Shown here in pieces: positions 45,753-49,990 of a stretch of DNA of 64,000 nt. The notes beneath the pieces were generated by a model. That model ran no database searches and was not told the origin of the DNA. It was given only the letters and a program-made list of their open reading frames with translations. The stretch spans positions 2,514-66,513 of the forward strand of contig JBBAJN010000002.1 in assembly GCA_040404045.1 (NCBI GenBank), written 5' to 3'. This stretch comes from Chitinophagaceae bacterium (lineage in GTDB: Bacteria > Bacteroidota > Bacteroidia > Chitinophagales > Chitinophagaceae). Each line of letters opens with the position of its first letter. Position 1 is the first letter of the stretch. The position numbers and the translations under genes were made by a program.

Positions 45753-45842
45753 CAATTGGCTAATGAGCTAATTTACTGATTAGCTGATTAGCCAATAGAA
45801 AAATGTTTACGTCGGTTCTGACCTAAGAATGAGCCAATTGTT
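45753..45842. repeat. Degenerate 8-bp tandem array (YAATTRGC), 6 units plus 2 downstream units
   Basis: caattggc-taatgagc-taatttac-tgattagc-tgattagc-caatagaa; then gaatgagc-caattgtt at 45827-45842. Confidence 0.8.
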
Positions 45843-46956
45843 ACTGGTTCAGCATAAGCGGCATAACGAGCATCAGCAAATCTTCATTTTCCCCCTGGTC
45901 GGTGGGTTTGATGATACCCGCTTTGGTAGGCGTTGAAAGCTCCATGCGCACTTCCTCGCTTTCTGTGGCGGACATCATTTCGATCAGGAAGCGGGCGTTG
46001 AAAGCGATCTGCATGTCTTCCCCATCGTACTGGCATTTCATTCTTTCGTTTCCTTCAAAGCTGAAGTCTACGTCTTGTGCAGTTAGCTGTAACTCAGAAC
46101 CAGAGATGTTCAGGGCTACCTGGTTGGTGCTCTTGTTACTGAAAATGCTTACACGCCTCAATGCGCTTTGGAAATCTGTGCGGAGGAGATTCATCTTATA
46201 TGGATTGTCGCCCGGGATCACCACTTTATAATCGGGGAACCTCGCATCGATCAGGCGGCAGACCATTTGAGTAGATCCATGGTCAACAAACAGATGGTTA
46301 CCATTATAAGAAATGTTCAGTTCGTCTTCATTATCCGGCAAGGCGCTTTTCAATAAATTCAGCGGCTTGCGGGGAACGATAAAGCTGTCCGCTTTGGGGC
46401 AGCTCACATCGGTCCTTTTATATTTCACCAGGCGATGCGCGTCGGTTGCCACTACGGTCAGTCCTTTTTTGTCGAGCTCGAAGAAAACACCCGTCATAGC
46501 TGGTCTAAGGTCATCATTGCTTACGGCAAAAAGTGTTTTATTAATGGCGGTCAGCAATGCGGAAGAAGTCATACTGAACGACGTTGTGGTATCAGCAGAG
46601 GGTTCCTTCGGAAAATTGTCTGGGTTCTCGCCCATCACCTTATACTTACCGTTGTCGCTGGTGATCTCGATACCGAAATTTTTATCGATGTTAAAAGTCA
46701 ACGGTTGCTCAGGTAAATTCTTCAGTGAATCCATCAGGATCTTTGCGGGGATACAAACTTTACCGCTATCTTTCGCTTCAATATCCATGTGGATTTTCAT
46801 GACTGTTTCAAGGTCGGTCGCTACCACGGTCAGCCTGTTTTTCTCTATCTCAAATAGGAAGTCTTCAAGAATAGGCAGTACGGTATTTGCGTTGATCACA
46901 CCATTGATCTGTTGCAGTTGTTTGAGGAGAGCCGACGCGGATACGATGAACTTCAT
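45841..46956 (-). CDS. dnaN: DNA polymerase III beta clamp
   Basis: NTVLPILEDF, VVATDLE, DDLRPAMTGV, VATDAHRL, FPDYKVVIP, AFNARFL, LVMPLML; ATG 46956. Confidence 0.97.
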   Translation of the reverse strand: MKFIVSASALLKQLQQINGVINANTVLPILEDFLFEIEKNRLTVVATDLETVMKIHMDIEAKDSGKVCIPAKILMDSLKNLPEQPLTFNIDKNFGIEITSDNGKYKVMGENPDNFPKEPSADTTTSFSMTSSALLTAINKTLFAVSNDDLRPAMTGVFFELDKKGLTVVATDAHRLVKYKRTDVSCPKADSFIVPRKPLNLLKSALPDNEDELNISYNGNHLFVDHGSTQMVCRLIDARFPDYKVVIPGDNPYKMNLLRTDFQSALRRVSIFSNKSTNQVALNISGSELQLTAQDVDFSFEGNERMKCQYDGEDMQIAFNARFLIEMMSATESEEVRMELSTPTKAGIIKPTDQGENEDLLMLVMPLMLNQ

Positions 46957-47074
46957 GAAGTTTTTGTTTGTGAGCAAATATAAGGGGGTAGAATTTATTA
47001 AAATCCGTGATTTTTGAACATTTTACCCGTGATTCTATGTTAAATTGTGTAACCAAATTACATTGGGAAAATCG

Positions 47075-48394
47075 ATGTTTGACAAGCTTTTCGGGTGGTT
47101 CAGGAAAACGGCGGAACCCCGGCCAGATATAGTTTTTGGCAGGTATTCCGACAATAACAAGACCGTTAAGCAGGTGAACCGCTGGACGGAGGCAGACAAT
47201 CTTTTTAAGGACCGCCAATATCAACAAAGCATCGATGCGTTTTTCGAGTATTTACGGGACGATCATGTCAGGAATGTGGAGACGGACCGTAAGGGTGAGA
47301 TATTGAATTTTACCATTTACCAGGGATCGAAGGTAGTCAGGGGTATCTGTAACAATGAGCGATTATCAGCGGAGGTCATGCTGGCCCGGATGCCCGAGCC
47401 CAGCATCCCGGTAATGCGCAGGCTTCTGGAGCAGAACTACCTGTTGTACTATAGCAGGTATACGCTGGACAATAACAAGATCTGCATGCGGTTTGACAGC
47501 GAGATCGAAACAGCCAATCCCAATAAGCTTTATTATGGTCTGAAGGAACTGGCCACCAAGGCGGATAAGCAGGATGATCTTCTGGTTCAGGATTTTGCCT
47601 CACTTGAGCAGATCGACACGGATCATGTGGCCCAGCTGCCCGATCGGGAGAAACAGGTTAAACTCGATTATTTCCGCAACTTCATCAAAGGCACCGTGGA
47701 ATATATTGACACGCTGGACAAGGACAAGCTCGCTGGCGGGATCTCATATATGTTGCTGGCGTTGGGGTACCGGATTGATTACCTGATTGCGCCCGAGGGT
47801 AAGTTGTTGCAGGAAATGGAGAAGGTGATAAGCATCTATTTCAGCAAGGAGGAAAGGTCCGCGCAGGAAAAGAACCACCTAATGACGGAGGCCTTTCGAA
47901 AAATGCTGGACAAAAAAGACCAGGATATCCTGCCCTACCTGTTCAGATCAACATCCACATTTTCCATTGTGACACCGCAGCCGCACAATGTGATCGCCGA
48001 AGCCCTCAATACGGCGATACAAAATATGCTGTGGTACCGCGACAATAAATATCCGGAGATCGCCCGGCAAATCATGGAGTATGGCATATCCTACTGCCAG
48101 TATTCATACAGCTTGCCCAAACCCATGAGCCTGCTGGTTCAGATGTTCATGGAAATAAATTATCCGGATTACTTCATGCATCTTGACTTCAAAGGGAAAT
48201 TGTACGATCCGGCCGCTAACCAATTCGAAAAACAGGAAATTGAAGACCACGCTGAGCAGATCATCAGCGCATGGACAGAAAAATACCCGAGCCTGGTGTG
48301 GAAAGCATCAAACATCAGGTACGACAATATCATTAGTTTTAATCAGAGTTTCCTGAACGAGATCCAGGGATTGAATTTCGAAGGAGTAAAATAA
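47075..48394 (+). CDS. Hypothetical protein with a YbjN/CesT-like domain and helical C-terminal region
   Basis: IPVMRRLLEQNYLLYYSRYTLD...LKELATKADKQDDLL fits the T3SS-chaperone-like pattern; no signal peptide; ATG 47075. Confidence 0.55.
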   Translation: MFDKLFGWFRKTAEPRPDIVFGRYSDNNKTVKQVNRWTEADNLFKDRQYQQSIDAFFEYLRDDHVRNVETDRKGEILNFTIYQGSKVVRGICNNERLSAEVMLARMPEPSIPVMRRLLEQNYLLYYSRYTLDNNKICMRFDSEIETANPNKLYYGLKELATKADKQDDLLVQDFASLEQIDTDHVAQLPDREKQVKLDYFRNFIKGTVEYIDTLDKDKLAGGISYMLLALGYRIDYLIAPEGKLLQEMEKVISIYFSKEERSAQEKNHLMTEAFRKMLDKKDQDILPYLFRSTSTFSIVTPQPHNVIAEALNTAIQNMLWYRDNKYPEIARQIMEYGISYCQYSYSLPKPMSLLVQMFMEINYPDYFMHLDFKGKLYDPAANQFEKQEIEDHAEQIISAWTEKYPSLVWKASNIRYDNIISFNQSFLNEIQGLNFEGVK

Positions 48395-48398
48395 GGGA

Positions 48399-49508
48399 AT
48401 GGAAGCCAGCACAGCGCAATCTATCATAGAGTCATTTCAGTACGTAGTGGTCCAGATCGCTACCCAAAGCGGCACGGGTACGGGCTTTTACGTGAAAGAG
48501 TTCGACCTGATCGTCACCAACCACCATGTTGTAAAAGATTTTGCCGAAGTGACCATGATGGGAAAACATTTCTCAAAAACGATCTCCCGGGTTTTGTATA
48601 CCGATTCGAAGCATGACCTCGCTTTTCTTTTGCCCCCGGATCACGTGGAATTCCCTGAGATCAGGCTCGGAAATTATAATGATATCAAAGATGGGGATCC
48701 TGTGATCGCTATTGGTCACCCCTATGGCTTAAATTATTCCGCTACGCAGGGTGTGGTGAGTAAAGTGAACAGGATCCGCGAAGGCCTGAAATTCATCCAG
48801 ATCGATGCGGCCATCAATCCAGGCAACAGCGGCGGACCACTGGTGAATAAATATGGCCATATCATAGGCGTCAATTCCTTTATCATCCGCGGTGGGGATA
48901 ACCTGGGATTTGCGCTTCCGGTTAATTATCTCAATGTTGCGCTGAGTCTTTACCTGCCCCACAAGGGAAAAGCTTCTTCGAGGTGTCCTTCATGTGATTT
49001 CCTGGTGCTGGGTTCAAACATTGACTCAAATAGATATTGCCCCAGTTGTGGTACCGAAGTGACCCTCCCCCTGATCCCGGAGAAAGAAGCCGAAACCGTT
49101 GGTATCCCGCGCATCATAGAGGATATCCTGGGCCAGTTGGGCAAGGATATCAAGCTCGCCCGTAATGGTGTGAACAACTGGGAGGTGAAGGAAGGATCCG
49201 CAAAGATCAAGATCAGTTATAATACCGACAGCTACTTTATTGCCGCAGATGCATTTCTCTGCCAGCTACCCTCAGATGTCACCATGATCAAACCCCTTTA
49301 CCAGTACCTGTTGAAAGAAAATCATCGGATCAACGGCCTGGTACTCAGTTGCTACCAACAGAATATCGTTCTGTCGAGCCTGACGTACGACCACGATCTG
49401 AACAAGCAAAATGGTACCGCCACCTTCGGTAACCTTTTCAGGAAAGCCGATGAGTACGATGGTTTCCTGAAAAGGGAATTCGGTTGCCTGCAGAGGTTGG
49501 AAGAATAG
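48399..49508 (+). CDS. Cytoplasmic trypsin-like (S1C) serine protease with Zn-ribbon and C-terminal YbjN-like domain
   Basis: Catalytic triad VTNHHVV / HDLAFL / AAINPGNSGGPL; CPSC-x12-CPSC; C-terminal LYQYLLKENH...FRKADEYDGFL. No signal peptide or PDZ domain. Confidence 0.8.
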   Translation: MEASTAQSIIESFQYVVVQIATQSGTGTGFYVKEFDLIVTNHHVVKDFAEVTMMGKHFSKTISRVLYTDSKHDLAFLLPPDHVEFPEIRLGNYNDIKDGDPVIAIGHPYGLNYSATQGVVSKVNRIREGLKFIQIDAAINPGNSGGPLVNKYGHIIGVNSFIIRGGDNLGFALPVNYLNVALSLYLPHKGKASSRCPSCDFLVLGSNIDSNRYCPSCGTEVTLPLIPEKEAETVGIPRIIEDILGQLGKDIKLARNGVNNWEVKEGSAKIKISYNTDSYFIAADAFLCQLPSDVTMIKPLYQYLLKENHRINGLVLSCYQQNIVLSSLTYDHDLNKQNGTATFGNLFRKADEYDGFLKREFGCLQRLEE

Positions 49509-49513
49509 AGGCA

Positions 49514-49990
49514 ATGAGTAAATTAAGTAAAGACCAGGCCCTCCAGAAACTCCGCCATTACTGTGGCTACCAGGAACGGTCGCACAAAGAGGTGAAGGAG
49601 AAACTCTATGGTTTTGGTTTATACAAGCAGGAGGTAGAGGAAGCGATCGCTACACTCATTGAAGAGGACTATCTTAACGAGGAACGATACGCCATGGCGT
49701 ATGCAGGGGGACATTTCCGCAGCAAACAATGGGGCCGTGTGAAGATCACCTACGAACTCAGGCAGAAAGGAGTGAGTGCCTACTGTATCAACAAGGCCCT
49801 GAAAGAAATCGACGAGAATGATTATCTGGAGACCCTCCGAAGCCTTGCCCAAAAGAAGGCGGAGTCGCTGCGTGGCGAGGGCCTTAACGCGTTCGCCCGC
49901 CAGCAGAAGATCATGAATTACATGATGCAGAAGGGATTTGAGCCCCCGATCATTCAACAGGTGTTGAAGGCTATGCAAGTGCCCGAATAG
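49514..49990 (+). CDS. recX: Regulatory protein RecX
   Basis: YCGYQERSHKEV..KL, YLNEERYA, WGRVKI..ELRQKG, YMMQKGF; ATG 49514. Confidence 0.92.
   Translation: MSKLSKDQALQKLRHYCGYQERSHKEVKEKLYGFGLYKQEVEEAIATLIEEDYLNEERYAMAYAGGHFRSKQWGRVKITYELRQKGVSAYCINKALKEIDENDYLETLRSLAQKKAESLRGEGLNAFARQQKIMNYMMQKGFEPPIIQQVLKAMQVPE

Follow-up and report, generated by a model that had tools for sequence, protein, structure and literature searches.

The window, a 64,000-nucleotide (nt) stretch of Chitinophagaceae contig JBBAJN010000002.1, contains two adjacent genes that we call P1 and P2 (coordinates are those of the whole window). As far as sequence comparison can tell, P1 and P2 constitute a conserved two-gene module. 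P2 has the sequence of an HtrA-type serine protease with an intact active site, followed by a zinc ribbon and a domain resembling YbjN and the TY chaperones; P1 carries a second domain of the same fold. We give an even chance to the reading that P1 and P2 form a cytoplasmic protease-plus-adaptor complex joined via these two chaperone-like domains. The genes and the parts assigned to them are as follows.

47075..48394, plus strand: P1, partner protein, 439 amino acids (aa); ATG at 47075, TAA at 48392-48394.
47165..47593, plus strand: YbjN/TY-chaperone-like domain at the P1 N-terminus, residues 31-173, assigned from AlphaFold2 and Foldseek.
47642..48367, plus strand: all-helical domain at the P1 C-terminus, residues 190-431, with 11 helices in the AlphaFold2 model (predicted local distance difference test score, pLDDT, >90).
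48399..49508, plus strand: P2, predicted cytoplasmic protease-zinc ribbon-chaperone-like protein, 369 aa; ATG at 48399, TAG at 49506-49508.
48447..48962, plus strand: HtrA-type (S1C-like) protease domain of P2, residues 17-188, assigned from Trypsin_2, the PDB profile search and Foldseek.
48525-48527, 48615-48617 and 48828-48830, plus strand: P2 catalytic residues His43, Asp73 and Ser144, assigned by alignment.
48975..49058, plus strand: C4 zinc ribbon of P2, residues C196, C199, C214 and C217, in the pattern CPSC-x14-CPSC.
49104..49481, plus strand: YbjN/TY-chaperone-like domain at the P2 C-terminus, residues 236-361, assigned from hhalign and the AlphaFold2 topology.

The start of P1 agrees with the N-termini of its homologues in the alignment, and P2 begins after an intergenic gap of 4 nt.

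The protease domain of P2 is recognised by sequence and by fold. Pfam Trypsin_2 matches residues 27-158 (E 4.5e-27), and a profile built from 23 P2 homologues retrieves HtrA1, HtrA2, DegP, DegQ, DegS and AlgW from the PDB (E 1e-34 to 1e-42), with the matches confined to profile positions about 18-184. The AlphaFold2 model of P2 (mean pLDDT 92.6; predicted template modelling score, pTM, 0.87) finds DegQ, AlgW and HtrA1 in Foldseek (root-mean-square deviation 2.2-3.2, E 5e-18). The NCBIfam HtrA/Do models cover the protease domain only, TIGR02037 reaching 159 bits versus a cutoff of 416 bits. Ser144 sits in the oxyanion motif GNSGGP and, with His43 and Asp73, completes the intact triad that had been read from the sequence in an earlier annotation of this locus (the original prediction).

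Signal peptides and membrane segments are lacking in both proteins: the N-terminus of P2 is not hydrophobic, and the highest Kyte-Doolittle hydropathy over 19 residues is 1.24 in P2 and 1.07 in P1. Both are therefore predicted to be cytoplasmic. The protease domain opens the protein directly in all 22 P2 homologues. Searches of P2 against Pfam and NCBIfam give no PDZ match, and the AlphaFold2 model shows the ribbon and an alpha/beta chaperone-like domain instead; hydropathy and family searches thus agree with the original prediction that P2 has neither signal peptide nor PDZ domain.

Two further HtrA-like genes are present in the same genome outside the window, at G000:C162:644-1156 (an open reading frame, ORF, of 508 aa) and G000:C39:15162-15623 (a 367-aa ORF); the protease domain of P2 shares 36% and 27% identity, respectively, with theirs.

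The four cysteines of the ribbon are kept in 206 of the 207 rows of an alignment of 206 full-length P2 family members, and zinc-ribbon Pfam families match 20 of the 23 P2 homologues weakly. A ribbon of the form CPSC-x12-CPSC had been proposed; the ribbon itself stands, and the spacer is corrected to the 14 residues that separate the two motifs, x12 being a miscount. In the C-terminal domain that follows, W261 is conserved in every one of the 207 rows and E241 in 206. AlphaFold2 (pLDDT >90) builds this domain from a helix (236-246), three strands (260-289), a helix (294-310), two strands (315-330) and a closing helix (336-361). Foldseek with the whole P2 model returns HtrA protease domains only and is uninformative on the C-terminal domain. 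When the C-terminal 185 residues of P2 were searched exhaustively against 1.84 billion cluster representatives (50% identity), only 214 matched. These are mostly 345-375 aa long with the match at their C-terminus, and the P2 architecture is therefore stable.

P1 has no Pfam or NCBIfam family match, and its homologues, more than 2500 in number, are annotated 'hypothetical'. In its AlphaFold2 model (pLDDT 94.2, pTM 0.90), the N-terminal domain comprises helices 31-45 and 49-60, four strands (68-105), a helix (111-121), a further strand region (127-143) and a helix (149-173). The chaperone-like regions of P1 and P2 share the order helix-three strands-helix-two strands-helix. In Foldseek the P1 domain matches the YbjN-like structure 2plg (template modelling score 0.66-0.73, probability about 1.0), and ExsC, CesT, SycH, SigE, AmyR, PA14_16140 and Escherichia coli YbjN are also matched at a probability of about 1.0.

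The two domains also resemble each other in sequence. Residues 53-178 of P1 and 236-364 of P2 align in hhalign with a probability of 96% (E 2.7e-9), or 89% (E 2.6e-6) with larger alignments, and a similar acidic helix closes both domains (ADKQDDLL in P1, KADEYDGFL in P2). Among 21 P1 homologues, 11 match Pfam TY-Chap1 (E<=1, best 2e-6) and 4 match YbjN. Relatives of the P2 C-terminal domain also occur as stand-alone proteins of ~145 aa, at L050 1477-1920 (genome G311) and L051 1471-1899 (G363); the former reaches 25.3 bits against YbjN (cutoff 22) and the latter 27.1 bits against TY-Chap1 (cutoff 27). Judged by these scores, the two stand-alone proteins bridge the fused P2 domain to the canonical YbjN/TY-Chap1 family. 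A YbjN/CesT-like segment in both proteins, as originally proposed, is borne out by profile-profile comparison, by the relatives, by AlphaFold2 and, for P1, by Foldseek; profile searches do find the fold.

The remainder of P1 is without known counterpart among the structures searched: the helical domain (240 residues) has no PDB fold, viral fold or PDB sequence-profile match. Within it, the motif P240-E-G242 is invariant.

At the other end of P1, a motif FGRYSDxxK (residues 21-29; 47135-47161) precedes the chaperone-like domain and is modelled as coil. G22 and R23 are invariant in a 146-sequence alignment. The motif, which is missing in a distant clade, may serve for docking or as a pseudo-substrate.

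P1 and P2 occur together. In an evenly sampled set of 401 Bacteroidota genomes, with P2 tracked by its zinc-ribbon-plus-chaperone part, P1 is found in 23 genomes (one of them a weak match to a different 609-aa ORF) and P2 in 26. Both genes are present in 22 genomes from 10 families, one gene in 5 and neither in 374; the single-gene genomes comprise one with P1 only, the weak match, and four with the P2 C-terminal domain only. Of the 22 genomes holding both, 19 have P2 as the gene next after P1. Each genome has a single copy of the pair. Of the 21 genomes sampled from the family to which the window belongs, 4 have both genes and 17 have neither.

The linkage is strict near the window. Among 80 Chitinophagaceae loci from named genomes, both genes can be read complete in 76, and P2 directly follows P1 in all of these, with a median gap of 13.5 nt (3 nt in metagenome loci) and some overlaps of 1 or 4 nt. 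In a sister clade known from metagenomes, P2 lies beside P1 in 21 of the 53 loci with enough flank. The pair also occurs in a metagenome-assembled genome labelled Sulfuricurvum, whose P2 is 41% identical to that of the window; a full-length homologue of P1 (hhalign E 4.5e-42) stops 2 nt before this P2, and the neighbours are tyrS, relA/spoT, rpoZ and pyrH. The original prediction described an uncharacterised two-gene module whose genes should be co-conserved. The counts of 22 genomes with both genes versus 5 with one agree with this, as do full-text searches, in which no paper describing a fusion of a trypsin/HtrA domain to a YbjN-like or TY-chaperone domain was found.

The P2 tree groups largely by bacterial family, and the base composition of P1-P2, including its guanine-plus-cytosine (GC) content, is like that of the flanks. 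From the conserved synteny, the flank-like GC content, the single copy, the family-level clades and the housekeeping neighbours, we infer that the module belongs to the vertically inherited core genome and is not a mobile defence island.

Domains of the YbjN/CesT fold dimerise, as in the homodimeric YbjN and CesT and in the SycN-YscB heterodimer (1xkp). The TY domains of P1 and P2 would pair in the same way, in which case the two proteins would form one complex; a 3:3 assembly is possible if the protease domain trimerises like those of HtrAs. The chaperone-like pair, together with the helical domain of P1, would capture extended client segments, and these would be handed to the HtrA-type active site, or access to the site would be controlled. 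The TY domain would thereby fill the role that PDZ domains have in HtrA proteases, and in the cell the complex would carry out regulated proteolysis of cytoplasmic proteins or their quality control. The heterodimer of the original prediction, and the gating or substrate recruitment by its partner protein, are plausible. A wider version of this proposal is possible, though we hold it tentatively and would sooner bet against it: the module may be a hitherto undescribed cytoplasmic proteostasis or regulatory system of several phyla, in which the TY heterodimer, one half of it attached to the protease via the zinc ribbon, replaces the PDZ sensor, the P1 helical domain selects clients and, as repeatedly evolved protease-dead forms would suggest, client capture is the core activity.

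Several observations weigh against a protease-plus-adaptor complex as a general account. The window proteins themselves fall below the Pfam thresholds for YbjN (PF10722) and TY-Chap1 (PF22551) and match neither at E<=0.1, the top Pfam family of this fold for them being CesT_Tir_1 at E 0.035. The two genes are often unlinked in the sister clade (32 of 53 loci) and are unlinked in genomes G067, G167 and G351, yet both are present there; in Bernardetia, P2 is unlinked on a 600-kb chromid, among housekeeping neighbours. Genome G351 has P1, but its sole P2 is dead, lies apart from it and forms a long branch in the P2 tree. Above all, His, Asp or Ser is lost in 39 sequences, all of them among the 89 full-length 50%-identity representatives; this fraction, 44%, overstates the frequency of dead forms, because clustering at 50% identity over-represents fast-evolving lineages. 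By inspection, the protease domain of these relatives has decayed, and they keep the four cysteines, E241, W261 and the chaperone-like domain. Since 39 of 89 representatives lack the triad yet retain the ribbon and the TY domain, proteolysis is not the activity conserved throughout, and catalysis is dispensable in parts of the family. For the same reason, many relatives being catalytically dead, the 'adaptor-gated protease' of the original prediction cannot, on this sequence evidence, be the full story for the whole family.

Examples of such pseudo-proteases are P0246, P0248, P0288, P0301, P0317, P0353 and P0373, and loci L040, L173 and L182.

The dead relatives lend weight to an alternative that we regard as unlikely, in which the pair holds or scaffolds a client or regulator, the trypsin fold serves as a binding platform and catalysis is optional. 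DegP has a protease-independent chaperone activity, which this alternative recalls. It is favoured by the retention of ribbon, E241, W261 and C-terminal domain in the 39 representatives, by G351, which retains P1 and no P2 other than a dead one, and by the two dead P2 genes (L173 and L182) that still adjoin P1. These two, both metagenome sequences, are the only dead ones among the 102 P2 genes adjoining P1. Against the alternative, the over-representation of fast-evolving dead lineages applies here too, and the triad is intact in all Chitinophagaceae orthologues: triad and GNSGGP are strictly kept in the 76 orthologues of the window clade, at 63-84% identity, which argues for selection on catalysis in that clade.

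The coupling of P1 to P2 that supports an adaptor would equally support P1 as an inhibitor, an anti-protease or a regulated substrate, with the FGRYSD peptide or the TY domain occupying P2 until a signal arrives. The conserved, extended motif around G22 and R23, lying ahead of the TY domain and modelled as coil, is in keeping with such a role. The distant clade in which the motif is missing still keeps the pair, however, and the genes do not behave like a toxin-antitoxin pair, being single copy, in core-genome context and often unlinked. We consider this alternative quite improbable.

Two genes that flank the pair in the window are context only.

49514..49990, plus strand: recX, context gene outside the conserved module, with Pfam RecX_HTH1-3.
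45841..46977, minus strand: dnaN, divergent neighbour upstream of P1, with DNA_pol3_beta domains.

All three RecX domains of Pfam are detected in the recX product. The ATG of recX (49514) follows P2 after 5 nt, and simple scans find no convincing terminator at the P1-P2-recX junctions; judging from the spacing, recX probably shares the P1-P2 transcript at this locus. The layout originally described, with P1 and P2 4 nt apart, recX 5 nt further on and dnaN divergent, is confirmed by the coordinates.

The order kdsB - dnaN / P1 - P2 - recX - nitrilase - ... - thiL is widely kept in Chitinophagaceae. Of the 80 loci, 40 have recX downstream of P2 at a distance of up to about 1.3 kb, and 15 have it 2-5 kb further downstream on that strand. 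One locus has recX upstream, and in 24 it is not detected, several of these being too short for a verdict. An adjacent recX is missing from G139 and from many other loci of Chitinophagaceae, and in L058 and L101 dnaN is replaced while P1, P2 and recX are still together. Among 20 regions (10-19 kb) of other families, P1 and P2 are the only genes common across families, the other neighbours including peptidases and metabolic enzymes, and tblastn with RecX, DnaN, UmuD, UmuC and RecG finds nothing in 98 distant loci other than those of genomes G257 and G127. Because the 100 distant loci have neither recX nor dnaN and no gene is shared across families, the sequence comparison assigns the recX/dnaN association to lineage-specific synteny confined to Chitinophagaceae.

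One strand in G257 (L133 6759-11011) carries P1, P2 and then two genes: a umuD-like Peptidase_S24 gene (158 aa) and a umuC-like gene for a Y-family polymerase (441 aa). The arrangement was seen once only. In G127, recG immediately precedes P1 and has the same orientation (L142 9230-12929), again once only. A general link to DNA repair through these genes was rejected, none of them being present in the other 98 distant loci.

It is accordingly very unlikely that the module acts with RecX in a DNA-damage or RecA-control pathway. The gaps of 4 and 5 nt, the downstream recX in 40 (near) and 15 (further away) of the 80 loci, the P1-P2-recX unit kept in L058 and L101 and the isolated umuD-umuC and recG genes count in favour of such a pathway, as does a Deinococcus YbjN homologue that binds DdrB (PMC3575483). 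The absence of RecX, DnaN, UmuD, UmuC and RecG matches from the other 98 distant loci, the lack of any cross-family neighbour and the loci, such as G139, without adjacent recX count against it, and shared ancestry explains the synteny. The stress or DNA-damage setting suggested in the original prediction is not supported, recX and dnaN adjoining the pair within Chitinophagaceae only.

Further neighbours vary with the clade. In the family f2 clade, genes for a PorP/SprF type IX secretion membrane protein and a bactofilin follow P2 (L135 11327-13441, L136 6705-8335, L138 10912-12687), and in family f3 a gene for a response regulator of the LuxR type is transcribed divergently from P1 (L139 7684-8370, L140 7269-8126, L141 7278-7952). 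PorP/SprF, bactofilin and the LuxR-type regulator were rejected as parts of the module, being clade-specific.

An anti-phage or conflict system whose effector is the protease is the least probable alternative, a long shot: PADLOC finds similarity of the P2 protease domain, at the domain level only, to those fused to defence reverse transcriptases (RT-Protease_XI), LmuA and Avs1b, and the distribution is patchy (4 of 21 genomes in the window's own family), but PADLOC gives no P1 match and no system-level match, no phage homologue of P1 was found, the sole plasmid match is the Bernardetia chromid with its housekeeping neighbours, the core-genome position is stable with clades that follow bacterial families, and P2 is 63-84% identical across the family, unlike fast-evolving defence genes. 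A phage or plasmid origin was rejected on the same grounds, namely the lack of a P1 phage match and the single chromid match, and the anti-phage framing of the original prediction is not supported, given the housekeeping surroundings, the missing P1 phage homologue and PADLOC matches limited to the protease domain.

If the protease-plus-adaptor reading is right, P2 would be a cytoplasmic, ATP-independent relative of HtrA in which a domain resembling a secretion chaperone senses and a dedicated partner assists, and the YbjN fold would be given a defined biochemical function in bacteria lacking type III secretion. With its frequent protease-dead members, the family provides a natural experiment for telling essential from dispensable activities of the complex. 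P1 and P2, a small and soluble pair with confident models, are therefore open to direct biochemical tests.

HtrA proteases are textbook extracytoplasmic quality-control enzymes regulated via PDZ domains. With this family (MEROPS S1C), P2 shares the catalytic domain in sequence and fold, the triad, GNSGGP and a C-terminal module predicted to bind peptides. P2 differs from it in having no signal peptide or anchor and no PDZ domain, in carrying the C4 ribbon and the TY domain there instead, in having a dedicated partner gene and in failing the full-length curated model (TIGR02037).

YbjN-like proteins are widespread. The P1 and P2 domains share the fold of E. coli YbjN (6vu7), Erwinia AmyR (5fr7) and the Synechococcus protein 2plg, the superfamily also including Pseudomonas aeruginosa BacA (8q8o) and Deinococcus DR1245, and relatives of the two domains reach the YbjN and TY-Chap1 models. 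As predicted for P1 and P2, YbjN/TY-Chap1 proteins reside in the cytoplasm, and bacteria that lack type III secretion encode them as well. The YbjN members known so far stand alone, at about 130-160 aa, whereas the domain is here fused to a protease and ribbon in P2 and to a 240-residue helical domain in P1. TY-Chap1 (PF22551) has been described in ADP-ribosylglycohydrolase-centred systems (Iyer et al. 2022, PMC9503650), a context that is absent at P1-P2.

The class I chaperones of type III secretion (SycN-YscB 1xkp, CesT, ExsC and SycH) have the same fold as well. They are homo- or heterodimers that wrap extended client peptides and, by analogy, offer a model for how P1 and P2 could pair. In contrast to them, P1 and P2 have no effector context, and their domains are fused to other modules. 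The type III export gate FHIPEP is absent from the genome that carries the window (98.3% complete), and the whole of that genome likewise contains no canonical YbjN gene (PF10722); because both are lacking, the P1 and P2 domains are predicted not to be secretion chaperones.

Adaptor-assisted proteolysis is known from SspB-ClpXP, where the C4 zinc-binding domain of ClpX is the docking site, from CpxP-DegP and from MecA-ClpCP. P1-P2 would resemble these in working principle only, through a separate adaptor and a C4 zinc module; there is no homology to P1-P2, and the P1-P2 module has no ATPase. The HtrA domain and the TY fold were both known already, and what is new is the combination of an HtrA-type protease with a different sensor module and a partner of its own.

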